A stretch of DNA of 64,000 nucleotides from Candidatus Sulfotelmatobacter sp. (GTDB lineage Bacteria > Verrucomicrobiota > Verrucomicrobiia > Limisphaerales > UBA11358), in contig DATJTK010000080.1 of assembly GCA_035503455.1 (NCBI GenBank), positions 73,271 to 137,270 of the forward strand. Direction: 5' to 3'. Under the pieces are notes generated by a model, which saw nothing but the letters and a program-made list of their open reading frames with translations, was not told the DNA's origin and made no database searches. Positions 2,407 to 58,990 of this stretch are shown piece after piece (the first letter of the stretch is position 1; each line of letters begins with the position of its first letter). The position numbers were made by a program, and so were the translations under genes.

Positions 2407-3462
2407 ATGTCGTTCCTCCTCACCGACCTTGCTGTCATCGCGCTGACCGCGATCGTGTCCTGGTGGCTGAGCGGCTTCGATTCACGGCTGACTGGAGAAG
2501 ACGGATGGGAGGACATCACCCGGCGCGCGCTCCGTTGCGGAATTACCCTATTGGTTGTCCAGGTCGGCTTCTATGCCCTCCGGCGATACCAGATGACCGG
2601 CGACCGCTCGGCGGGCTTTTTATACCTGGCCATGCTGGCGCCATTGTTATTGCTGTGGGTTGGATGCATCAGTGAGGCCTGTGCGCAAAACTTTCATCAT
2701 CTGATAGATCCGCAGGACAAACGGCCCTACGACCCAAAAGCCGCTGTGCGCGAACTCGATGCAGTTGGAAATTTAATTCGAAGTGGCCGCAAAGACCAGG
2801 CCATCGAATTATGCCGGATACTTCTGCAAACCTCACCTGAACACCAGGCCGCGTTGGAAGCGACCCTGCATCACCTCGGCGCTCCCCCGCCCGAATCGCC
2901 CAAACAACTCAAGCCAGTGACCGAGGCCGGCAAGTTGCGCAAGGCAGGAAAATTCGAAGAAGCCAAAATTCTTTTAAACGTGTTGCTGGAACACAACCCC
3001 TCGAACCTGGAAGCCGCATTAATGCTGATTCGCCTTTATGCGCATGATTTGCATCAGCCGGCCATGGCCAGCGAAGTGTTGCGGTCGCTCGAAAAACAAC
3101 CTCACGTCCCCGCAGCCTACATCGAGATTGCCCGCCACTCGATCACCCATCAGCCACTGCCTGTCGCCAGTGCCTCGGCGGCCGCCGATGAACCGCTGCC
3201 CGAATCCATTGACGAACTCCTGGAGAAAAGGTATTTCGGCACCGCCGTGGACCTGCTGGAAAAACAATGTGAAGCCGAGCCCGCAAATTTTGGGCCGTGG
3301 ATAAAACTCGCGGAAGTCCACGGCCTCCACTGCGCCAATCTAAAATTGGCAGAAAAGACAATCCACCAAATCGAAACCAATCCCGCCTTCACCTCAGATC
3401 AAAAACAACAGGCCAGAAACCGCCTCCATGACTGGCGCAACCGTTCGGTGTCCACGCTTTAG
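2407..3462 (+). CDS. Membrane-anchored TPR-like repeat protein (hypothetical)
   Basis: 351-aa ORF with N-terminal hydrophobic segments (LAVIALTAIVSWWL, ITLLVVQVGFYAL, LYLAMLAPLLLLWVG). These are followed by helical-repeat sequence (GRKDQAIELCRILLQTSPEH, GKFEEAKILLNVLLEHNPSN). The last codons and the TAG stop lie inside a dispersed hairpin repeat. Confidence 0.5.
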   Translation: MSFLLTDLAVIALTAIVSWWLSGFDSRLTGEDGWEDITRRALRCGITLLVVQVGFYALRRYQMTGDRSAGFLYLAMLAPLLLLWVGCISEACAQNFHHLIDPQDKRPYDPKAAVRELDAVGNLIRSGRKDQAIELCRILLQTSPEHQAALEATLHHLGAPPPESPKQLKPVTEAGKLRKAGKFEEAKILLNVLLEHNPSNLEAALMLIRLYAHDLHQPAMASEVLRSLEKQPHVPAAYIEIARHSITHQPLPVASASAAADEPLPESIDELLEKRYFGTAVDLLEKQCEAEPANFGPWIKLAEVHGLHCANLKLAEKTIHQIETNPAFTSDQKQQARNRLHDWRNRSVSTL

Positions 3463-3541
3463 CGTGCTCCGGGGTTCGACGTCCCATCTCCCAACTCCAA
3501 ATCCTTGTAACAATTCTCCGCCTTTCCTGAAGTAACAGGCG

Positions 3542-5161
3542 ATGAACGAACCGTCATTTGGAGAAACCCACGGCAATTTCTATCTGCTCATGGAATTTGT
3601 GGACGGCTTGACACTCCGGCAATTGCTCCAGGACCGCAAACTTTCCGCGCCCGAAGCCCTCGCCATCGTCCCCAAAATTTGCGATGCCCTTCAATACGCC
3701 CACAGCCAGGGCATCGTTCACCGCGACATCAAGCCCGAAAACATTCTCGTGGACAAAGAAGGCCATGTGAAAATCGCAGACTTTGGCATCGCCAAAATCC
3801 TCGGTGACGGCGAACGCGCAAACCTGACCGAGGCCCAGGCAATCGGTACCCCGCATTACATGTCGCCTGAACAAATTGAAAAGCCACAAACCGTGGATCA
3901 TCGCGCGGACATCTATTCCCTCGGCGTCGTCTTTTACGAAATGCTCACCGGCGAGTTGCCGCTCGGAAAATTCCAGCCGCCGTCGAAAAAAGTCCACGTG
4001 GACGTGCGCCTGGATGAAATAGTCCTGCGAGCACTGGAAAAAGAACCTGAACGCCGCTATCAACAGGCCAGCGAAGTCAAAACGCAGGTGGAAACGGTCG
4101 CCGCTAGCGCCCAACCAACAATCCGCGCCGCGGACCGAGGTCCCGTCAGCGCGGCGCCACAGTCCGTCGGCGCGTGGAAGCCCGTGGCTATCGTCGTCGG
4201 TGTGGCAGCCGCGATCACAGCGGCAATCATATTACTCGCATTTCTCGGTCTTTTGGCAGCGATCGCCATTCCCAATTTCGTCAAAGGACGAGAACAGGCT
4301 CAGGAACTGTTTCAGCAAGAACATACAAATGAGGTGCCCGCGTCCACCCTGACATGGTCGCCAACGCTCGCGCCAGGCGAGAAGCCGGATTTCAACAAAA
4401 TTCTAAGCGACGCTCAAACCCTCACAGCCGAGGGCAGCTACGAGGATGCCTTGCAACACTTACTTTGGTATTTTGATCATACCAGAACCGACCCCGCCAG
4501 CGGCCAGGAAGGCGTACGCCTTTCATTCGCGCTTTCCTACTGGATTGAACTGGGCCGCCGTTATCCAAAGGCAAAGCGGGCCCTCATCGAAATTCGCGAT
4601 GCCGACGCCCGCAAATTTTCAGAAAATACCGGCTATGCCGATCTGTTTCAGGAAGTCGCCGGCATCAACCAATATCTCGGCACCAACGATGCAACCGTGG
4701 CTCTGTTCAAAACCATTGAGCAGAGCGATCCGCAATTGGCCCAGGAATGTTTCAACTACGCCGAAAATACTCTTTTTCAAAAAGGCGACTACGTGACGTG
4801 TCGAAAATATCTCGGCGACCCGCAGAAGGCCTTTGATATCATCCGCGAGGGGTGGCAGCGGATGAAACAATTCGAGCAACGAACGGCAACCCAAAATGAG
4901 GACCAAAGAAAACGCTTCAAGGAAATGGCCAAAACCAATGCGCTGTTTGCGCAATTCCCGGATATTCCCTCGCCGCCGCCCTTGGCCGACGACAATTTCG
5001 TCCGCCAGACCCGCCAATTAATCGAAATCCTGGTTGCAACCGGAAGCAAATCCGAGGCTGAAAACATCCAAACCCAGGCCCTTGCCGCTCTTAACGATCC
5101 GCGCCTCCAAACCGCTGTCCAGGATGCCGAAGCAACCATTGCCGGCCACGATGCGCGGTGA
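3542..5161 (+). CDS. Ser/Thr protein kinase-like protein lacking the N-lobe; C-lobe + TM segment + helical-repeat C-terminal domain
   Basis: The ORF begins at the hinge (YLLMEFVDG). It has HRDIKPEN, DFGIAK and GTPHYMSPE, then a TM segment (VAIVVGVAAAITAAIILLAFLGLLAAIAI) and a roughly 280-aa helical domain. There is no GxGxxG or VAxK. An in-frame TAA sits at 3533-3535. Confidence 0.6.
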   Translation: MNEPSFGETHGNFYLLMEFVDGLTLRQLLQDRKLSAPEALAIVPKICDALQYAHSQGIVHRDIKPENILVDKEGHVKIADFGIAKILGDGERANLTEAQAIGTPHYMSPEQIEKPQTVDHRADIYSLGVVFYEMLTGELPLGKFQPPSKKVHVDVRLDEIVLRALEKEPERRYQQASEVKTQVETVAASAQPTIRAADRGPVSAAPQSVGAWKPVAIVVGVAAAITAAIILLAFLGLLAAIAIPNFVKGREQAQELFQQEHTNEVPASTLTWSPTLAPGEKPDFNKILSDAQTLTAEGSYEDALQHLLWYFDHTRTDPASGQEGVRLSFALSYWIELGRRYPKAKRALIEIRDADARKFSENTGYADLFQEVAGINQYLGTNDATVALFKTIEQSDPQLAQECFNYAENTLFQKGDYVTCRKYLGDPQKAFDIIREGWQRMKQFEQRTATQNEDQRKRFKEMAKTNALFAQFPDIPSPPPLADDNFVRQTRQLIEILVATGSKSEAENIQTQALAALNDPRLQTAVQDAEATIAGHDAR

Positions 5162-5957: not shown

Positions 5958-7247
5958 ATGAAGCTAACCATCATTGGAACAGGCTACGTTGGCCTCGTTA
6001 CCGGCACGTGTTTTGCCGAAGTCGGCCATAACGTTATTTGCGTGGACAACGATGCCGCAAAAGTAAAACTGCTCCAAAACGGCGGCATCCCCATCTACGA
6101 ACCGAAACTCCAGGAATTGGTCCAGAAAAATGTCGCCGCCGGAAGGCTTGCTTTCACAAACAGCACCGCCGAAGGAGTCGAAAAATCCGACGTCATATTC
6201 ATCGCCGTGCCCACGCCGCCGCAGCCGGACGGCTCCGTGGATTTGAGCTTTATCGAACGTGTCGCGCGCGACATCGCCTCGGCCATGACCAGCTATAAAA
6301 TCGTCGTGGATAAAAGCACCGTCCCCGTCAAGACCGGTGAACGAGTCTCGGAGACCATCAAACGCTATTGCAAAGCCAAAGTCGAATTCGACGTCGTCAG
6401 CAACCCGGAATTTTTGCGCGAAGGGTTCGCCGTGGATGATTTAATGAAGCCCGACCGCGTCGTCATCGGCGTCCGCTCGCCCCGCCCCGTCTCGGCGATG
6501 AAAGAAATCTACACGCCGTTCAAAGCGCCAATCATTGTCACAGACATCGCCTCGGCCGAACTTATCAAACACGCGGCCAATTCATTTTTGGCACTCAAAA
6601 TTTCCTATATCAACGCTATTTCCATCGTCTGCGAGGCCTCCGGCGCCAACGTCCAGCAGGTGGCCGAAGGCATTGGCCTGGACGAACGCATTGGACGCCG
6701 CTTCCTGAATGCGGGCATCGGCTTCGGCGGCAGTTGTTTCCCAAAAGACCTGAGCGCCTTCATCAAAATTTCCGAGCAGATCGGCTACGATTTCCGGCTG
6801 CTTCAGGAAGTCCAGCGCATCAACACCCAACAGATGGATAGGTTCGTCAAAAAAATCACCGATACGTTGTGGGTCTTGAGAGATAAAACCATCGGGGTGC
6901 TCGGCCTGGCCTTCAAACAAAACACCGACGACGTGCGCATGTCGCCCGCTATTGATCTGTGCCAGCGCCTGCAAAAAGAAGGCGCCACATTGCGCGTCCA
7001 CGATCCCAAGGCCATGGAAAAGGCCAAACCACTCCTGCCCGCTGTCACCTATGTGGACGACATGAATTCGGTTGCCGAAGGTTGCGACGCGCTTATCATT
7101 GCGACCGAATGGGAGGAATTTAAAGCGCTCGACCTGGACCGCGCCCAAAAAGCGCTAAGTCATCCGATCATGTTTGACGGACGAAATCTCTTTGATCCGG
7201 TTGAAATGGAAAAACGCGGTTGGATTTACAAAAGTGTCGGCCGCTAG
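5958..7247 (+). CDS. ugd: UDP-glucose 6-dehydrogenase
   Basis: MKLTIIGTGYVGLVTGTCFAEVGHNVICVD Rossmann N-terminus, SNPEFLREG, and the GFGGSCFPKD catalytic-Cys motif. Length is 429 aa. Confidence 0.95.
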   Translation: MKLTIIGTGYVGLVTGTCFAEVGHNVICVDNDAAKVKLLQNGGIPIYEPKLQELVQKNVAAGRLAFTNSTAEGVEKSDVIFIAVPTPPQPDGSVDLSFIERVARDIASAMTSYKIVVDKSTVPVKTGERVSETIKRYCKAKVEFDVVSNPEFLREGFAVDDLMKPDRVVIGVRSPRPVSAMKEIYTPFKAPIIVTDIASAELIKHAANSFLALKISYINAISIVCEASGANVQQVAEGIGLDERIGRRFLNAGIGFGGSCFPKDLSAFIKISEQIGYDFRLLQEVQRINTQQMDRFVKKITDTLWVLRDKTIGVLGLAFKQNTDDVRMSPAIDLCQRLQKEGATLRVHDPKAMEKAKPLLPAVTYVDDMNSVAEGCDALIIATEWEEFKALDLDRAQKALSHPIMFDGRNLFDPVEMEKRGWIYKSVGR

Positions 7248-7387
7248 CAATGGATCTGGCACCGATTTGGCGTCCACCCTTTAGGGTGCCCCGGGCGAAA
7301 TCCATGATGCGCGGCCCGACCGGGGTCTGATGGAGAAGACTTTCCTGTTTTCCTGCCTTCCTCATTGTTTTAATCTGTGTTTCATCT

Positions 7388-7811: not shown

Positions 7812-7950
7812 GAAGGTGGTGGAGGACGGCGCACTGCGCCGTCCCGCCCGCGCAGAGCGGGCGGAACATACGTGGTACAACGGTTGACCACGCTCATTGC
7901 GCCGCTGCACGCGGCGCTACACGGCGCAGCGCGCCGTGTTCCACCACACC
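7812..7950. repeat. GC-rich multi-hairpin REP-like element (four stem-loops)
   Basis: Stem-loops: ggacggcgcactgcgccgtcc (7824-7844), cgcccgcgcagagcgggcg (7845-7863), gcgccgctgcacgcggcgc (7899-7917) and acacggcgcagcgcgccgtgt (7919-7939). Related copies occur at 35889-35945, 41247-41380 and 54653-54710. Confidence 0.8.
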
Positions 7951-8027
7951 GCGGTTCATGGAGAGGCGCATTTTAAGATTCAAAACTTCTTCTTGCCGCG
8001 ATACCTGCACCCGTTCATTTTTCTAAA

Positions 8028-8455: not shown

Positions 8456-8535
8456 CTCACCCTCACCCCGGCCCTCCCCTCAGAGGGCCCTCAGAGGGAG
8501 AGGGGAGGGAGAGGGAGAACGATGGCACCGTTGGT
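8456..8535 (-). repeat. 'ctccctctccc/gggagaggg' hairpin element, inverted copy of the 49027-49270 family
   Basis: The sequence ctcaccccggccctcccctcagagggccctcagagggagaggggagggagagggagaacgatgg is the reverse complement of the catcg..ttctccctctccc..gggagagggccggggtgag pattern seen at 49100-49155. Confidence 0.65.
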
Positions 8536-17726: not shown

Positions 17727-17766
17727 AAACATCGAACATCGAACATTGAACGCCCAACATCGAACG
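17727..17766. repeat. (AACATCG)n heptamer repeat element
   Basis: The sequence aaacatcgaacatcgaacattgaacgcccaacatcgaacg lies just after the hpnJ stop. It is the reverse complement of the elements at 51091-51133 and 58911-58950. Confidence 0.8.
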
Positions 17767-26175: not shown

Positions 26176-26252
26176 TTTGATTCCATCTGGCCGTTGGGTG
26201 ATGCCACCCGTTTTTTCTTTTTCCTTTTGCTCTTTTCCTTTAAACCCCCTGT

Positions 26253-35430: not shown

Positions 35431-35888
35431 TCACTCTATAGGCACAGTAAATGAAATGCCCGCATTGTCAAAAGGTTATTTCAGAGACCTCCGCGCCTCT
35501 TCAAGATTTTTTGATTTCGCGGCAATCCCGCTAGTGAATTCCAAGCTGAATTATTGTCGCTCATTCGCCACGGTTTATGAACACCGCGGTTCATCCGAGG
35601 TTTCGCGGGATTACCTCCGTACCCACAACGCAAACGTGCAGAGCAAAAAGAATAATGAGGGGGTTCCGAGGCCGAGCCAGTTGAAATGCTGCGCGCCGTT
35701 CATTCCATCGGGCACGTAGCAATTAGGAATGGCAATCGTGTACAAGATACAGCCCACGAATACGTTAAGTATCAACCGGACTGCAAAAAAACTTCTCGCA
35801 AATATCGACCGCATGCCCGAAATAATAGCAGAAATTGAGCCAATACCGGCAAATCATGAATGAAGTAAGGCTCCTTCCATGAACCAGA

Positions 35889-35945
35889 GGGTGGTAGAAC
35901 ACGGCGCGCTGCGCCGTGTAGCGCCGCGTGCAGCGGCGCAACCAG
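35889..35945 (+). repeat. GC-rich double-hairpin REP-like element
   Basis: The sequence is gggtggtagaacacggcgcgctgcgccgtgtagcgccgcgtgcagcggcgcaacc. It lies immediately 3' of the NlpC/P60 gene stop. Confidence 0.8.
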
Positions 35946-35960
35946 CGGGGTTCACAGTCC

Positions 35961-37431: not shown

Positions 37432-37654
37432 CGTGTCAAAAACCCTCCTTGCTAAACAAATCGTACCGCAACCCTCAGCCACAACTATGACTGATGGCCG
37501 CCACCGCAATGTTCACCCGGGTCGCGAATTTTTCAACCAATTTTTCGGTTACAAATTGAGGGCTCGTTCGGTGTCCACCCTTTAGGGTGCCGGGCACGAT
37601 CCCGCAACGGCCGGATGTTGGTGCTTGGAATTTGGATATGGGCATTTATACTGC

Positions 37655-39343
37655 ATGTCAGTGGCTAAATCTTCATCCAAAGAACAGCAGACAACCGGCA
37701 ACGCGCGTCCGTTGCGGGTGGGCTTGATTTCACTCGGCTGCGCCAAGAACCTCGTGGACGGCGAAATCATGCTTGGTTCCCTGCTAAAAGACGGCATTCA
37801 GATCACCAACGATGCCGCCCAGGCGGACGCCCTGATCGTCAATACCTGCTCATTCATTGACTCGGCGCAGGAGGAGAGCGTGGACGCCATTCTCGAATCA
37901 GCCGAAGTCCGCGAGGCCAGGAACCGCGGCCAAAGTTTGATTGTTTCGGGCTGCCTGCCTCAGCGCTTCCGGGAGGAACTCCCAAAGCTTTTGCCCGAAG
38001 TGGACGCTTTCATGGGAATAGACCAGGTGACGAGAGTTTCGGAGATCGTCAAGGCCGCCATCCAAAAACGGGCGGAAAAAGTCAACAATCACCGGCCAGG
38101 CCAAAAACAGAGTTCCAAAGCCAAAATTGTTGGGCGTTTCGCGGAATTGGACAAAGGCCGGATCACCGGCCGGCCTCATTCCCACGATACGGGCGGACAA
38201 CCAGCCGACAAAAATTCAAAATTGACGGATGGACCGTTGCTCGAGGTTCACAACCGGCCGACATTCATTCCAGATTTCGCGACACCCCGGTTTCGGCTCA
38301 CCCCAAAGCATTTTGCGTACGTCAAAATCGCGGAGGGCTGCAATCATCCTTGCAGTTTTTGCATTATTCCGCGGATGCGCGGCTCCCATCGGAGCCGGGG
38401 CCAGCTTGATATCGTGGCGGAAGTCAAAGCGCTCGTTGCCGATGGCGTAAAAGAGATTAACCTGATTTCACAGGATTCCACCTATTACGGACTGGATTTG
38501 CGGCCCAATCACAGCCGGACGATCTCGTCGCCGGAAAAATTCTCCGCAGCCGCCAGGTCGCTTCCCGCCGAGGCCACCACCATTTGCAGCCTGCTGCGGG
38601 AATTAAATGCGATTGAAGGCGACTTCTGGATACGCCTGCTTTACACGCACCCGGCGCACTGGACCGATGATCTCATCGCCACCATCGGCCAGTGCAAAAA
38701 AGTGGCTCGATATGTGGATATTCCCCTCCAGCACATTCACGAAAACATGCTCGAACGCATGAGGCGGGAAACATCCCAGCAATACATTTGTGATTTGATC
38801 CGGCGGATTCGCGCAGGCGTGCCGGGTATTGCGCTGCGAACCACATTTATCGTCGGTTTTCCCGGTGAAACGGAACGATATTTTGAGACGCTGCTGGATT
38901 TTATCCATGACGTGAAATTTGAGCGCCTCGGCGTGTTTGTCTATTCCAGGGAAGAGGGAACGCGCGCAGGCGCGATGGCCGGACAAATCCCTGACCAAGT
39001 CAAACAGCAACGCCGCAAAATCGCGATGGCCGAGCAACGGAAAATTGCGCAGAACATTTCCCAGGCGTTCGTTGGGCGGGAGATCAAGGTCCTCGTCGAG
39101 GGCCGCGCCGATGCCAGGCAATTGGAAGGGGCGAATATCAGTTCCTGGGAGCATGGTTTTCTGCGCGGCGAAAAACCGTCCGCCACGCCGCTCACCGGCC
39201 GCTTTCTCGTCGCGCGCGGCGAGGCCGACGCGCCCGACATTGACGGGCGGGTCTTCATTCGCGGCCGTGCGCCTGTTGGCGAATTTGCCAGAGTCAAAAT
39301 CATCGGCCATACCGATTACGATTTGATTGCCCAACCCGTCTAG
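37655..39343 (+). CDS. rimO: Ribosomal protein S12 methylthiotransferase
   Basis: MTTase N-domain (LRVGLISLGCAKNLVDGEIMLG, IVNTCSF), radical-SAM motif EGCNHPCSFCIIP, and a C-terminal TRAM-like domain (FVGREIKVLVEG..RVKIIGHTDYDLIAQPV). It also contains low-complexity insertions. Confidence 0.9.
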   Translation: MSVAKSSSKEQQTTGNARPLRVGLISLGCAKNLVDGEIMLGSLLKDGIQITNDAAQADALIVNTCSFIDSAQEESVDAILESAEVREARNRGQSLIVSGCLPQRFREELPKLLPEVDAFMGIDQVTRVSEIVKAAIQKRAEKVNNHRPGQKQSSKAKIVGRFAELDKGRITGRPHSHDTGGQPADKNSKLTDGPLLEVHNRPTFIPDFATPRFRLTPKHFAYVKIAEGCNHPCSFCIIPRMRGSHRSRGQLDIVAEVKALVADGVKEINLISQDSTYYGLDLRPNHSRTISSPEKFSAAARSLPAEATTICSLLRELNAIEGDFWIRLLYTHPAHWTDDLIATIGQCKKVARYVDIPLQHIHENMLERMRRETSQQYICDLIRRIRAGVPGIALRTTFIVGFPGETERYFETLLDFIHDVKFERLGVFVYSREEGTRAGAMAGQIPDQVKQQRRKIAMAEQRKIAQNISQAFVGREIKVLVEGRADARQLEGANISSWEHGFLRGEKPSATPLTGRFLVARGEADAPDIDGRVFIRGRAPVGEFARVKIIGHTDYDLIAQPV

Positions 39344-39657
39344 CCGGTAGTGTCTTAAATTGGTTTGGTGTACACGCTTTAGCGTGCTCCGGAGCAGCCT
39401 GGAGACTGGACGGCGAAAAACCGTCCGCCACGCCGCTCACCGGCCGCTTTCTCGTCGCGCGCGCGGCGAGGCCGACGCGCCCAACTTGACGGGCGGGTCT
39501 TCATTCGTGGCCGTGCGCCGGTTGGCGAATTTGCCAGGGTCAAAATCATCGGCCATACCGATTACGATTTGATTGCCCAACCCGTCTAGTCGGTAGTGTC
39601 TTAAATTGGTTTGGTGTACACGCTTTAGCGTGCTCCGGAGCAGCCTGGAGACTGGAC
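39167..39657 (+). repeat. Tandem duplication (245 + 246 bp) of rimO 3' end plus downstream hairpin element
   Basis: Copy 1 is 39167-39411 and copy 2 is 39412-39657. They differ by about 6 substitutions, a +gc insertion and a 1-nt deletion. Both end in ...gtgtacacgctttagcgtgctccggagcagcctggagactggac. Confidence 0.95.
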
Positions 39658-39762
39658 GGCGAACCCGGTACACCCTGAAGGGTGGACACCAAACGCATTA
39701 AGGACCACTACCGTGCAGTTCCTTCCCTTGACGGACGATTTCGCCAACGCGATAGTTGCTGG

Positions 39763-41217: not shown

Positions 41218-41246
41218 TCCAACACGGCGCATCTTGACACTGTTCC

Positions 41247-41380
41247 TGGTAGGGACGCTGCGCTGCGGCGTCCAGCGCCGCGTGCAGCGGCGCAACAAGT
41301 GGAATCGGACGTCCTTCCACCTATGTTCCGCCCGCTCATCTGCGCGGGCGGGGACATCGCAGCGCGATGTCCCTACCACC
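41247..41380. repeat. GC-rich multi-hairpin REP-like element (composite, same modules as 7812-7950 in rearranged order)
   Basis: Modules: ggtagggacgctgcgctgcggcgtcc, agcgccgcgtgcagcggcgcaac, then ...cgcccgctcatctgcgcgggcg and gggacatcgcagcgcgatgtccctaccacc. Confidence 0.8.
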
Positions 41381-43245: not shown

Positions 43246-43254
43246 ATTTACGGC

Positions 43255-43320
43255 TTGGTGTCCACCCTTGAGGGTGTTCCGGCATGGGCGTCAAACGAAC
43301 ACCCTAAAGGTGGACACCAG
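43255..43320. repeat. Inverted pair of the GGTGTCCACCCTTTAGGGTG-type hairpin element
   Basis: ttggtgtccacccttgagggtgttccgg (43255-82) and gaacaccctaaaggtggacaccag (43297-320) are reverse complements of each other. Other family copies: 3447-73, 7266-95, 37567-94, 39364-92, 39610-38, 39665-96 and 51041-70. Confidence 0.85.
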
Positions 43321-43436
43321 GCCAATATGCATGGTCAAACTTGCTAGGTTCATGAGCATCACAATGAGAACGATTTTGAGAGACTTGGATTTTTGGCTTT
43401 TGCAGAATGGCCGGCTCGTGTTCAATTTTCCCCACT

Positions 43437-47390: not shown

Positions 47391-47516
47391 ATATCGTTAA
47401 AAAATTAAAAATAAAAAACCCAGCGCCGACAATCGCCGACACTGGGTCAGGAGGAACCGAGGTCAAAAACCTCATGGATAAACAGATTAATTGAACCCGC
47501 CCAAAAGTCAACATCA

Positions 47517-49026: not shown

Positions 49027-49270
49027 GGGTGAAAATTCGCCCAGGGAAACTTCGCGAATTGAACCCTGAACCGGGCTGATTGTTCGCCCCGTCAAACCAT
49101 CGGACGATGATTCTCCCTCTCCCTTTGGGAGCCCTTTGGGAGAGGGCCGGGGTGAGAATTCGCCCAAGGAAAACTTCGCGCATTGAACCTCTGAACCGGG
49201 ATAATTGTTCGCCGTGTCAAACCATCGGACGATGATTCTCCCTCTCCCAGCGGGAGAGGGATGGGGTGAG
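49027..49270 (+). repeat. Tandem ~122-bp repeat units each ending in a ctccctctccc...gggagaggg hairpin
   Basis: Unit 1 starts at 49027 (gggtgaaaattcgcccagggaaacttcgcgaattgaaccctgaaccggg...). Unit 2 starts at 49149 (ggggtgagaattcgcccaaggaaaacttcgcgcattgaacctctgaaccggg...). A third, partial start is at 49263. The sub-repeat gagaatcgttcga(a/g)tga(g/t)aatgttgcggtt recurs at 49270 and 49512. Confidence 0.85.
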
Positions 49271-49657
49271 GGAGAATCGTTCGAATGAGAATGTTGCGGT
49301 TCATGGGGAGGGGGGTATCGTTCGAATGAAAGCAATCGAAAATTTCACCATTTACAATTTGCGCATCAAGCGTTAACGGTCTGTTGAACCATTAAGTCGT
49401 TGATTTTGAAGCATGTAACCTTAATTCGTTAACCCTTTTTCCACCTCATACCCCTCTTACTCACCGCGCCGACACTTTTCGGCAAGGGCAGTGATGGAAA
49501 GGGAGAATCGTTCGAGTGATAATGTTGCGGTTTATGGTGAGGGAGGGGGCCTTCGCGTCTTTGCGCCTTTGTTGTTCAAACCTCAAACCTCCAACCCGCA
49601 AAAAACAATTTCCACAAAATCCAACCAGAGGATATGCTGGAACTGATTGCATTTTAA

Positions 49658-51034: not shown

Positions 51035-51090
51035 TTGTGTTCGGTGTACACGCTTTAGCGTGCTCCCCGGATATCAGTGGTGCCACCTTC

Positions 51091-51133
51091 ATTCGATTTT
51101 GGGCGTTCGATGTTCGATGTTCGATGTTTTGGG
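51091..51133. repeat. (CGATGTT)n heptamer repeat element
   Basis: The sequence attcgattttgggcgttcgatgttcgatgttcgatgttttggg lies downstream of hemN and directly follows a cacgctttagcgtg hairpin copy (51041-70). Confidence 0.8.
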
Positions 51134-51195: not shown

Positions 51196-51313
51196 GTGAA
51201 TCGCAACTTAAACCTGAATCTGCTGCTACTGCGTCGCATGGCGGTCGGGTTCTGATTTGCATTCAACGTTTTATCAAACCCCATCGCCAACCCGGCGATG
51301 GGGTTTTTGTTTT
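51196..51313 (+). promoter_or_regulatory. Leucine leader peptide + transcription attenuator upstream of leuA
   Basis: The GTG at 51196 opens a 19-codon ORF, VNRNLNLNLLLLRRMAVGF* (6 Leu, 4 of them consecutive), with its stop at 51253-55. A perfect terminator follows. The segment ggcggtcggg (51240-49) could alternatively pair with the terminator 5' arm. Confidence 0.6.
51279..51313 (+). terminator. Intrinsic terminator (attenuator 3:4 hairpin)
   Basis: A perfect 10-bp stem pairs ccccatcgcc (51279-88) with ggcgatgggg (51294-303). The loop is aaccc, followed by tttttgtttt. The terminator ends 47 nt before the leuA ATG. Confidence 0.75.
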
Positions 51314-53387: not shown

Positions 53388-53486
53388 AGTCTTAGTTAGG
53401 GCCTCCCAGTGGCCTCATCCTTTTTCCTTTTTCCTTTTTAATTCTTTCCCTATCCTCCCGTGAACGCGACGACGTCGCGAGTCATC

Positions 53487-54647: not shown

Positions 54648-54652
54648 GCATG

Positions 54653-54710
54653 TGGTGGAACACGCCGCGCTGCGCCGTGTAGCGCCGCGTGCAGCGGCGC
54701 AACCAGCGTG
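54653..54710 (+). repeat. GC-rich double-hairpin REP-like element
   Basis: The sequence is tggtggaacacgccgcgctgcgccgtgtagcgccgcgtgcagcggcgcaacc. It starts 6 nt after the livK stop. Confidence 0.8.
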
Positions 54711-56221: not shown

Positions 56222-57219
56222 GGGTGAAACAACTTTCTCTCTCCGCCATCGAACGTGCCGGCGATTCCCCAAAAACCACCCTTCTGGCTGCTCTCGTCCT
56301 CTGCTTCCTGATTTCACTTCTTGAACAACATAACCAGTCTTATTGGCTGTATGTTTCCTACGACATCGGCGTCAACATCATCCTCGCCGTCAGCTTGAAT
56401 CTCATCAACGGCTATACCGGCCAATTTTCCCTGGGACACGCCGGCTTCATGGGGATTGGCGCTTACACTGCGGCGGTCATCACCAATCAATTTTCAAACC
56501 TGCATCCGGTGCTTAACGTCGGCGTTTTTATCCTTGCACTCATTGCCGGCGGATTGCTCGCCGCCCTGGCCGGGCTCATTGTGGGCATCCCGACCCTTCG
56601 ATTGCGCGGCGATTACCTGGCCATCCTCACCCTCGGATTCGGCGAAATCATCTGCGTCGTGCTTCAAAACATGGATGCCGTGGGCGGCGCGCGCGGGTAC
56701 GCGGTATATCACAACTGGACAAACATTTTTTGGGCTTTTGGAACGGGCGCCGTTGCCATTTATATCATCGTTGCCCTCGTGCACTCGACCTTTGGACGCG
56801 GCTTTATCGCGGTACAGGACGATGAAATCGCCGCCGCCGCGGTAGGCATCAATCCCGTCAAATACAAAGTCACCGCCTTCGTGATTGGCGCATTTTTCGC
56901 GGGGATTGCGGGTGGCCTTTACGCGCATTCCAAGGGATATCTGACGCCGGACGGTTTTGGTTATATGAAATCCGTGGAAATTGTCGTCATGGTCATACTG
57001 GGCGGCATGGGCAACACCCCCGGCGTTGTCTTAGCCGCAATCCTCCTGACATTGCTTTCAGAGGGCCTGCGGTCCTTGCAAGACATCGAGCACATCCCCG
57101 GCATTTCCACCGAATTCCCGCTCAGCTGGATTAGTGGGATACGCATGGTTATTTATTCGCTGTTGTTGGTCGTGCTGATGCTCACACGGCCCAAAGGGCT
57201 GTTTTCCATGAAGAAGTAA
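56218..57219 (+). CDS. livM: Branched-chain amino-acid ABC transporter permease
   Basis: NLINGYTGQFSLGHAGFMGIGAYTAA, LRLRGDYLAILTLGFGEI and GGMGNTPGV motifs. Its start overlaps the livH stop. Confidence 0.9.
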   Translation: MRVKQLSLSAIERAGDSPKTTLLAALVLCFLISLLEQHNQSYWLYVSYDIGVNIILAVSLNLINGYTGQFSLGHAGFMGIGAYTAAVITNQFSNLHPVLNVGVFILALIAGGLLAALAGLIVGIPTLRLRGDYLAILTLGFGEIICVVLQNMDAVGGARGYAVYHNWTNIFWAFGTGAVAIYIIVALVHSTFGRGFIAVQDDEIAAAAVGINPVKYKVTAFVIGAFFAGIAGGLYAHSKGYLTPDGFGYMKSVEIVVMVILGGMGNTPGVVLAAILLTLLSEGLRSLQDIEHIPGISTEFPLSWISGIRMVIYSLLLVVLMLTRPKGLFSMKK

Positions 57220-57403
57220 AAAGGAAAAAGGAAAAAGTTGAACCGAAACATGAATCATTGGCACATCGAAACATTTGCAATAGCGCAGCCGACTATGTCG
57301 CCCCTACGGGGTTCTTCGTGTTTTTTCGGTCGTTTACTACAGATACGTCGCCCCTACGGCGTTTCAGCAGCAAATACTTTTTCCTTTTTCCTTTTTCCTT
57401 TTT
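57218..57403. repeat. MITE-like ~186-bp insertion with (AAAAAGG)n terminal inverted repeats between livM and livG
   Basis: The left end aaaaaggaaaaaggaaaaag (57218-37) overlaps the livM TAA. The right end is ctttttcctttttcctttttccttttt (57377-403). An internal 13-bp direct repeat gtcgcccctacgg occurs at 57297 and 57347. Confidence 0.6.
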
Positions 57404-57410
57404 AATTTTG

Positions 57411-58887: not shown

Positions 58888-58910
58888 GTCGAACCCGGTG
58901 GGTTTTTCAT

Positions 58911-58990
58911 TCGGTGTTCAGCGTTCGATGTTCGATGTTCGATGTTTTTGGGCTCATTCACTGAACCCGAAACCTCGAACATCGAATGCC
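58911..58990. repeat. (CGATGTT)n heptamer element with inverted partner
   Basis: The sequence tcggtgttcagcgttcgatgttcgatgttcgatgtttttggg ... cctcgaacatcgaatg lies downstream of livF. Confidence 0.8.

Follow-up and report, generated by a model that had tools for sequence, protein, structure and literature searches.

We analyzed a 64-kb stretch of DNA (the window; contig DATJTK010000080.1 of Candidatus Sulfotelmatobacter sp., Verrucomicrobiota, Limisphaerales), in which an earlier note, made from the letters of the sequence, had described a dispersed family of small hairpins. The hairpins lie beside genes encoding a TPR protein, UDP-glucose dehydrogenase (ugd), a RimO/MiaB-like radical-SAM enzyme, a DUF2752 protein and HemN; our gene calls and Pfam matches reproduced this context as the note had given it, including one copy in the divergent region upstream of rimO. 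All nine copies lie between genes, at most overlapping a stop codon. We conclude, with a probability of about 0.85, that the hairpins constitute one family of repetitive extragenic palindromic (REP) sequences, partly arranged in doublets like those known as REPINs (REP doublets forming hairpins) or BIMEs (bacterial interspersed mosaic elements), of a REPtron system of Verrucomicrobiota, with a 205-residue REP-associated tyrosine transposase (RAYT; TnpA-REP) of the HUH-Y1 fold as the presumed cognate enzyme. The repeat adds a new family to a well-known kind of selfish or domesticated bacterial DNA; it is not a new RNA.

Nine copies of a hairpin repeat in the window

With a covariance model (CM) of 150 family members, run with filters off, nine copies stood out in the window (23–44 bits, E = 7e-10 to 2e-4; Table 1), the next match scoring 13 bits (E = 0.1). 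Some of the window copies were in the training set, so that the gap to the next match is more informative than the scores themselves. When one mismatch was allowed, the core CACSCTTTAGSGTG had eight matches in the window, as compared to 0.06 expected from dinucleotide-preserving shuffles, and none of 100 shuffles reached eight; the ninth copy (43296–43322) carries a 1-nt deletion in one stem arm. The earlier count of at least nine copies is borne out by these searches, as is their division into two core forms, with CACGC..GCGTG stems in four copies and CACCC..GGGTG stems in five. A repeat finder extended the block shared by the window copies to about 30 nt (family D2). Position-weight matrix (PWM) and fuzzy scans added two decayed inverted partners (39393–39418 and 39639–39664), the former of which is credible only because an intact copy adjoins it. 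A census by fuzzy regular expression (at most five errors) was replaced by the PWM and CM, as it gave 3–10 background matches in shuffles and missed real copies.

Table 1. Copies of the repeat in the window, numbered from its first nucleotide
Position	Strand	Feature	Evidence
3443..3468	+	REP copy, stem CACGC/GCGTG, loop TTTA	CM 43.3 bits; PWM 39.7 bits; Pfam TPR
7265..7290	+	REP copy, stem CACCC/GGGTG, head variant GGCGT, 18 nt after stop codon of UDP-glucose dehydrogenase gene (5958–7247)	CM 28.4 bits; Pfam
37566..37591	+	REP copy, stem CACCC/GGGTG, in divergent spacer upstream of RimO/MiaB-like gene	CM 44.2 bits; gene calls
39363..39388	+	REP copy, stem CACGC/GCGTG, head GGTGTA, 20 nt after stop codon of RimO-like gene (39343)	CM 40.7 bits; sequence
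39393..39418	-	Decayed inverted partner of 39363 copy, CAGCC-type stem; head end at junction of 246-nt tandem duplication	Fuzzy match, 5 errors; sequence
39609..39634	+	REP copy, duplicate of 39363–39388, in second unit of tandem duplication	CM 40.7 bits; repeat D1
39639..39664	-	Decayed inverted REP GTTCGCCGTCCAGTCTCCAGGCTG	PWM 15.8 bits (shuffle maximum 12.2); fuzzy match, 4 errors
39669..39694	-	REP copy, stem CACCC/GGGTG, loop TTCA; inverted partner closing the cluster upstream of MscS-like gene	CM 39.9 bits; fold 39605–39700
43253..43278	+	REP copy of doublet, stem CACCC/GGGTG, loop TTGA, 8 nt after stop codon of DUF2752 gene (43245)	CM 33.1 bits; Pfam DUF2752
43296..43322	-	Inverted REP of doublet, 1-nt deletion in 5' stem arm; REPIN/BIME-like hairpin of ~27 bp with 43253–43278	CM 23.4 bits, E = 2e-4; fold
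51039..51064	+	REP copy, stem CACGC/GCGTG, 5 nt after stop codon of hemN (51034)	CM 41.1 bits

Chance and segmental duplication were considered as origins of the window copies and rejected, given the eight core matches against 0.06 expected and a local 246-nt duplication that accounts for the identity of only two of the nine. The density of nine copies in 64 kb, set against the same expectation, is a figure for the window.

Most copies follow stop codons closely, as had been noticed before: they lie 5–20 nt past the stop, and the copy at 3443–3468 holds in its loop the TAG (3460–3462) that ends the TPR-repeat ORF (open reading frame; 2407–3462). This ORF extends ~20 nt into the repeat and borrows the loop TAG as its stop; insertion of the REP may have rewritten the last codons of the gene.

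Across 43253–43322, GCTTGGTGTCCACCCTTGAGGGTGTT is followed by a 17-nt spacer and then by the reverse complement of the GCTTGGTGTCCACCCTTGAGGGTGTT unit minus one base. The long hairpin that the earlier note had proposed for these facing copies is supported by folding: as single-stranded DNA, 43250–43325 forms an imperfect hairpin of ~27 bp (−27.3 kcal/mol, z = −8.3). The cluster at 39605–39700 also folds stably (−22.4 kcal/mol, z = −4.2). Lone copies are weak single-stranded DNA hairpins (−3.8 to −6.2 kcal/mol), with z-scores that are not significant relative to shuffled sequence. Outside their 26-nt units, the outer REPs of the rimO-mscS cluster bear an additional imperfect inverted repeat of ~20 nt (CGGTAGTGTCTTAAATTG / CGCATTAAGGACCACTACCG; 39343–39362 and 39695–39720) that contains GGTAG, so that the palindrome of the cluster is longer than the units alone would make it.

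The repeat marks a site of structural difference between strains. A metagenome contig (L100) that matches 17.7 kb of the window at 99.5% identity lacks the doublet at 43253–43322; in its place the spacer (L100, positions 88–240) holds about 150 nt of another repeat, related to window positions 49066–49268. Upstream of the doublet spacer, the identity falls to 90%, and the spacer is therefore also a recombination boundary between strains. The copy at 51039–51064 lies within stretches aligned to two related contigs (L100, 99.5%; L101, 100%). The tandem duplication (39161–39663) consists of two 246-nt units, 97–98% identical, that hold the last ~180 nt of the RimO-like gene and the REP doublet. 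Its junction, between ctggacggcgaa and aaaccgtcc at 39406–39426, falls exactly on the head end of the decayed inverted REP and has a 7-nt microhomology, CGGCGAA, in common with the gene at 39166–39172; the head of the decayed copy thus coincides with a microhomology junction.

Occurrence in other genomes

We scanned one genome per GTDB species for TTYGGTGTNCACNCTTTAGNGTG, leaving free the two stem positions that vary in the window. Among the matches listed, exact copies of this 23-mer were found in at least 97 stretches, which belong to at least 41 species-level assemblies and are nearly all labelled Verrucomicrobiota, Limisphaerales, Pedosphaera or "subdivision 3"; taxon labels are those deposited with the contigs. 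The host lineage of the family is a soil or freshwater Verrucomicrobium, mostly bearing one of the last three labels. None of the stretches listed by the scan (fetched as loci with L numbers) comes from the genome of the window; the best nucleotide match among them, from a Limisphaerales metagenome-assembled genome (MAG), is 77% identical. A literature search for the core sequence returned only unrelated primer matches.

Five repeat-bearing contigs carry odd labels (L006, L087, L009, L033 and L090: two Bifidobacteriaceae, one Akkermansia muciniphila and two candidate division KSB1), and the contig labelled Akkermansia muciniphila bears a RAYT besides the repeat. Mis-binning or mislabelling of the contigs is the probable cause, with horizontal transfer as the alternative.

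A 26-nt unit with an invariant head and a covarying stem

The repeat unit comprises 26 nt: a 10-nt unpaired head (GTTYGGTGTC), a perfect stem of 5 bp with a TTYA loop, and a Y at the end. In the position table, conservation is at background up to −6, weak at −5, rises steeply at −4 and ends at +20/+21, delimiting a conserved block from −4 to +21. These sharp edges enclose a short palindromic unit of the size range of REPs (20–50 nt). Information is high across GGTGTC, the stem and the C-TTYA-G apex, and GTTY at the start of the head is conserved although the search pattern did not demand it. Both the head and the apex are nearly invariant across the at least 41 species-level assemblies.

The stem varies, and it does so in pairs. 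At the two free stem positions of the 121 matches listed by the genome scan, we found G/C 68 times, C/G 50 times, U-G twice and a mismatch once; G/G or C/C never occurred. A pairing-blind regular expression (GGTGT-N-NNNN-CT[TG][TCA]AG-NNNN), applied to the fetched loci and the window, retrieved 204 copies, in 193 of which all four free positions are paired. Five stem types make up most of this set (CACG/CGTG, 87; CACC/GGTG, 79; CCGG/CCGG, 12; CAGC/GCTG, 6; CAAG/CTTG, 4), a sixth (CCGCC/GGCGG) appeared in loci fetched later, and no unpaired intermediate stem type among the 204 copies had been amplified. For 150 distinct copies, 98.4% of cells are paired, as compared to 78.9% with shuffled partners and 21–55% with a slid partner column, while cells changed on both sides number 112 versus 38.

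Substitution in pairs rather than at random, which the earlier note had expected of copies across the genome, is seen in copies from other genomes. These data support selection for pairing in the stem, which is maintained by compensatory change. The note had gone further and proposed selection on a folded structure rather than on primary sequence. The first half of this proposal stands, with 193 of 204 copies fully paired by five different stems; the "rather than" does not, as head and apex are nearly invariant. Both primary sequence, in the head and apex, and pairing, in the stem, are under constraint.

Extragenic location, orientation and doublets

Genes were called by codon bias with a home-made program; its calls for the window were sensible, and by them 81% of the sequence is coding. 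Calling of longest ORFs was dropped; it put 46% of the copies inside genes and is misleading, since long antisense ORFs are common at the G+C content of these sequences. By the codon-bias calls, the repeat is extragenic: only 20 of the 204 copies (10%) lie inside genes, a figure that probably includes fused calls across repeat arrays. Convergent spacers hold 31 copies in 19.8 kb, whereas divergent spacers are depleted (19 in 25.7 kb).

About half of the copies are organized as inverted doublets. Convergent doublets with the heads outside, separated by a modal gap of 14–15 nt, are the commonest arrangement (61, as compared to 19 head-to-head and 8 direct pairs), and 47 of the 61 combine unlike stems. 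This is the organization of BIMEs and REPINs, that is, an inverted REP pair with a short linker, often of unlike subtypes; 43253–43322 and 39609–39694 are examples in the window.

The earlier note had suggested a role as transcription terminator or RNA-stability element, and the hairpins might indeed be primarily cis-acting RNA elements at mRNA 3' ends, terminating transcripts or stabilizing them against 3' exonucleases and selected for RNA folding. Six of seven repeat sites in the window lie 0–20 nt after plus-strand stop codons in the sense orientation, the excess in convergent over divergent spacers extends across loci, and the doublets fold very stably. However, relative to the gene whose 3' end they follow, 93 copies have the same and 88 the opposite orientation, and among 53 isolated copies the numbers are 28 and 22. 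(Against the majority gene strand, a proxy for the replication strand, isolated copies split 18 to 21, which is uninformative.) The position table shows no T tract after the stem, and a consensus scan of the window called none of the intact copies as a terminator, although canonical T-tailed terminators occur elsewhere in the window (47417–47448 and 51276–51306). Neither T tract, terminator call nor orientation bias thus identifies the repeat as an intrinsic (Rho-independent) terminator. In addition, a lone 5-bp hairpin does not exceed shuffled sequence in stability, and an RNA function would leave unexplained both the invariant unpaired 10-nt head and the bracketing of RAYT genes described below. 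The Rfam search that the note had proposed gave no match in the whole window at the gathering score, and at permissive E-values the two doublet regions returned only generic hairpin (miRNA-precursor) noise; a scan of the window for tRNA and tmRNA was likewise negative. The lack of orientation bias and of a T-tail, together with the invariant unpaired head, argues against a primarily RNA-level function, which we consider improbable. The comparison with REP/BIME-type repeats, also raised in the note, proved to be the right lead, the family having the sharp-edged palindromic unit, the extragenic location and the compensated stem of REPs, though not their tag.

The repeat brackets RAYT genes

We used E. 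coli RayT as a phmmer query against all six-frame ORFs of at least 80 amino acids (aa) in the fetched loci and the window. The matches consisted of six ORFs and no others, each encoding a 205-aa protein. All six of these loci, which had been selected by their repeats, are bracketed by copies about 5–60 nt from the start and stop codons of the RAYT gene. The copy nearest the start codon is antisense to the gene in all six, that nearest the stop codon in five of the six. Extra copies cluster around the gene, with up to 22 in 8 kb (L047).

In a reciprocal test, four homologues, 59–71% identical to the query, were picked only for lying on long contigs, and their surroundings were fetched. All four of these protein-selected loci carry repeats of the family within about 10–150 nt of the RAYT gene, on both sides in three and only upstream in the fourth (L103), and two of them use the stems CCGGC, CCGCC and CAGCC. 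Repeats thus adjoin the RAYT gene in 10 of 10 loci, and on both sides in nine, all in genomes other than that of the window. A RAYT flanked by the same REP family is the arrangement of a REPtron, found here in related genomes. One of the two RAYTs that are 61% identical to the query, that of L103, is accompanied by repeats whose head is changed to GTTGT, a pattern that would be expected if repeat and protein co-evolve and of which this is a single case.

The association also bears on whether the motif might be a host DNA signal, read as duplex or hairpin by a protein other than a RAYT (a nucleoid-associated protein, gyrase at its sites, an uptake system), with the RAYT association incidental. 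Conservation of head and loop to the base in so many species-level assemblies goes beyond usual descriptions of REPs, and the uptake sequences of Neisseria also occur as inverted pairs after genes. An incidental association is at odds, however, with repeats in all ten loci, four of which were chosen via the protein alone, and with a repeat density that rises around the RAYT gene; the changed head beside the divergent L103 protein is what co-evolution would be expected to produce, and free change of the stem with pairing kept fits a hairpin better than recognition of a duplex sequence. We therefore regard a host signal of this kind as very improbable. The physical tie between the repeat and the RAYT gene points instead to recognition of the repeat as single-stranded DNA.

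In three of the six first-found loci, the RAYT gene lies within a type I restriction-modification locus, between or beside hsdM and hsdS (L036, 1774–5930; L077, 3142–7917; L047, 4957–7035), and both RAYT flanks in L077 end in similar C-termini (...MLKELxYA*). The other RAYT loci have unrelated neighbors. A functional link between RAYT and restriction-modification loci is speculative. In another locus (L102, ~4976–5000), three copies of CACCGAA, the reverse complement of the head heptamer, lie between a REP and the RAYT start codon.

A divergent member of the RAYT family

The 205-aa protein matches the NCBIfam entry NF047646 (REP_Tyr_transpos, "REP-associated tyrosine transposase") over the full profile with E = 3.8e-21, and its sole sequence match in the PDB is TnpA-REP of E. 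coli (4ER8, E = 1.8e-4). The HUH motif is present as HYH, and equivalents of E. coli W94, E100, R104, Y115 and N119 are conserved, whereas Q95 and H101 are replaced by Cys and Arg, respectively. LPNHYHAL and NYVHNNPVHHGY are invariant in 27 homologues, and align to E. coli Y115 and N119. The protein thus combines the HUH motif, the catalytic tyrosine and the Y-x3-N-P-V signature. A large protein collection contains 1,535 clusters of homologues at E <= 1e-10, almost all of about 205 aa, that are mostly unnamed or called "putative transposase"; many lie on contigs of about 1 kb, and the repeat probably explains why RAYT-bearing metagenome contigs are so short.

Among PDB structures, an AlphaFold model built from the 27 homologues (predicted confidence, pLDDT, 78.9) most closely resembles 4ER8 (E = 2.4e-8, template modeling [TM] score 0.65). 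The transposases of IS608 and ISDra2 rank behind it (E about 1e-4, TM 0.46–0.53). The predicted fold is accordingly that of TnpA-REP rather than of an IS200/IS605 transposase.

Comparison with known systems

The closest counterpart of the repeat is that of the group 3 REPtron Mb of Marinomonas sp. MWYL1 (REP-Mb/TnpA-Mb; PMC8266576). REP-Mb likewise has a perfect 10-nt palindrome with a 4-nt TTTA loop, placed 2 nt from a conserved 5' tetranucleotide, and likewise is concentrated around its transposase gene; its loop and guide bases have been shown to control cleavage (PMC8266576). In contrast, the tetranucleotide is GTAG in REP-Mb but GGTG, within the head GTTYGGTGTC, in the verrucomicrobial unit, the putative verrucomicrobial transposase carries about 35 additional, conserved aa at its N-terminus, and the hosts belong to Verrucomicrobiota rather than Gammaproteobacteria.

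E. coli REPs and BIMEs share with the present family the extragenic palindromes, the conserved 5' head and the inverted doublets of two unlike subtypes (Y and Z), and E. coli RayT (TnpA-REP, 4ER8) is the best fold match, with the conserved residues listed above. E. coli REPs differ in their longer stem with an obligatory bulge, in place of a perfect 5-bp stem, and in their GTAG head; moreover, the REPs nearest the verrucomicrobial RAYT have the same orientation on both sides, unlike those in E. coli, and the proteins are only about 22% identical. The REPINs and group 2 and 3 RAYTs of Pseudomonas and Enterobacteria resemble the family in that the inverted doublet is the commonest form, the RAYT is flanked and the system persists across many related species, while their spacers are much longer than the modal gap here and stems in the present family are mostly heterotypic (PMC5581495, PMC8049555). 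Short, end-tagged stem-loops that are abundant, intergenic and RAYT-associated also define the GTAG- and CGTC-tagged REP superfamilies, neither of whose tags is that of the verrucomicrobial family; REPs in the PVC superphylum have been reported before, as GTAG repeats of the verrucomicrobium Opitutus terrae (PMC3733652). The nearest precedent for the head is provided by atypical-REP subclasses 2.6 and 3, which lack the GT[AG]G consensus (PMC6006769).

The ends of IS200/IS605 insertion sequences (IS; IS608, ISDra2) are similar: subterminal hairpins lie on the same strand on both flanks of the Y1 transposase gene, each preceded on its 5' side by a guide sequence. The present family differs in that hundreds of orphan hairpins are presumably dispersed without the gene, in the lack of tnpB, in a fold nearer to 4ER8 and in a RAYT gene that occurs in varied chromosomal contexts and shows no sign of having moved as a unit.

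The copies could also be integron attC-type sites, or the ends of a conventional miniature inverted-repeat transposable element (MITE) or IS element. The head GTTYGGT loosely resembles the integron core GTTRRRY, and in one MAG (CAIWJG01) the motif lies inside a 125-nt MITE with terminal inverted repeats and a target-site duplication of ~8 bp. GTTYGGT nevertheless does not fit the core consensus, the copies are flanked by scattered housekeeping genes rather than by cassette arrays, both orientations occur with no integrase nearby, and the order of core and inverse core in the common convergent doublets is reversed relative to attC; an assignment to attC sites was rejected on these grounds. As to MITE or IS ends, the motif is internal to the CAIWJG01 element, and ordinary copies have neither terminal inverted repeats nor target duplications beyond the 26-nt unit. 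The probability that either kind of element accounts for the family is close to negligible. The CAIWJG01 MITE itself is multicopy (L005, L007, L018, L034, L042, L050, L060, L065, L072, L074, L080, L084, L085, L089 and L092); it is bounded by CAGCAGTTCTCATT and AATGAGAATTGCTG and contains an (CGTCCCATT)n array. Being internal and not terminal, the REP is a passenger of this different mobile element.

Several observations weigh against a REPtron as the source of the hairpins. No RAYT gene was found in the 64-kb window among six-frame ORFs of at least 80 aa searched with phmmer, and the link between the window and the RAYT is one of repeat identity, not of co-occurrence in the same genome. The RAYT is a divergent relative that falls just below both curated family cut-offs: NF047646 gave 75.5 and 74.4 bits (cut-off 80), and Pfam Y1_Tnp (PF01797) matched weakly, with 17–20 bits (cut-off 23). 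Instead of a GT[AG]G or CGTC tag, the repeat has GGTG as the tetranucleotide lying 2 nt away from its stem, and the same-orientation REPs on both sides of the RAYT gene resemble IS200/IS605 ends more than the inverted pairs of E. coli. As to the stem, many of the compensated cells may stem from just five or six ancestral events that were then amplified, so that the cells are not independent, and subtype frequencies are biased because loci were ascertained with a TTTA-loop pattern.

Proposed mechanism and implications

By analogy with the TnpA-REP proteins of E. coli, Stenotrophomonas and Marinomonas (PMC8266576; PDB 4ER8), we suggest that the 26-nt unit is the presumed substrate of the 205-aa RAYT. 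The enzyme would bind the folded hairpin on single-stranded DNA, would read bases of the head and apex, and might cleave and rejoin beside the hairpin, thereby spreading and maintaining the repeats. Such recognition would explain why head and loop are fixed while the stem tolerates compensated changes only.

If the repeats affect the 3' ends of upstream mRNAs, they would do so as a side effect. A secondary influence of this kind is possible, and is made plausible by the many copies within 5–20 nt of stop codons. The REPs of E. coli stabilize upstream mRNA and, when situated near a stop codon, affect translation.

Experiments on REPs and RAYTs have been confined almost entirely to Gammaproteobacteria with GTAG-headed repeats, and the present family adds a well-defined, abundant example from Verrucomicrobiota. 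Its differing head, combined with a stem-loop geometry close to that of REP-Mb, amounts to a natural experiment on how TnpA-REP proteins choose substrate and cleavage site. The repeat also accounts for intergenic hairpins in these genomes that could be mistaken for riboswitch-like or terminator RNAs.

The family may further represent a distinct REP-RAYT lineage, whose head is long (10 nt) and differs from both GTAG and CGTC, whose doublets are obligatorily heterotypic and whose repeat is base-identical across dozens of mostly Verrucomicrobiota-labelled assemblies despite nucleotide identities of about 70–77% between orthologous genes; we judge the odds of this to be even. If so, repeat and transposase of this undescribed lineage would have been maintained together over the long term, as opposed to spreading in recent selfish bursts, and the lineage would offer a second model, phylogenetically remote from the first, of how guide sequences direct TnpA-REP.

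Other repeats in the window and loci

A second, unrelated palindromic family occurs in the window at 7816–7962, 35876–35958, 41245–41378 and 54651–54710, with a GGT(A/G)G head and two G+C-rich stem-loops (for example GGTAGAACACGGCGCGCTGCGCCGTGTAGCGCCGCGTGCAGCGGCGC). Stem differences are compensated in some of its copies. The family has the look of a classical REP with a GT[AG]G tag, and the other fetched loci yielded no copy of it. The 9-mer CCATGAACC precedes heads of this GTAG-type family at 35880–35888 and 7953–7961. The same 9-mer often lies 4–10 nt upstream of the head of the 26-nt REP; it occurs 43 times in 24 sources (e.g. L012, L019, L023, L055, L075 and L096), whereas by a rough estimate chance would give about 6.

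Short arrays of the heptamer GTTCGAT, which resembles the REP head GTTCGGT, lie at 17727–17764 (minus strand), 51092–51129 and 58910–58947 of the window. The array at 51092 is about 25 nt downstream of the REP at 51039, and that at 58910 opens with a head remnant, TTCGGTGTTCAGCG (CM 12 bits). Further intergenic repeats at 49066–49555 and 8457–8518 comprise direct pairs of 66 nt (125-nt spacing) and 56 nt (231-nt spacing) and palindromes of the CCCTCTCCC...GGGAGAGGG type. Runs of the CCTTTTTCC type are found at 26207–26250, 53417–53446, 57208–57238 and 57381–57410.

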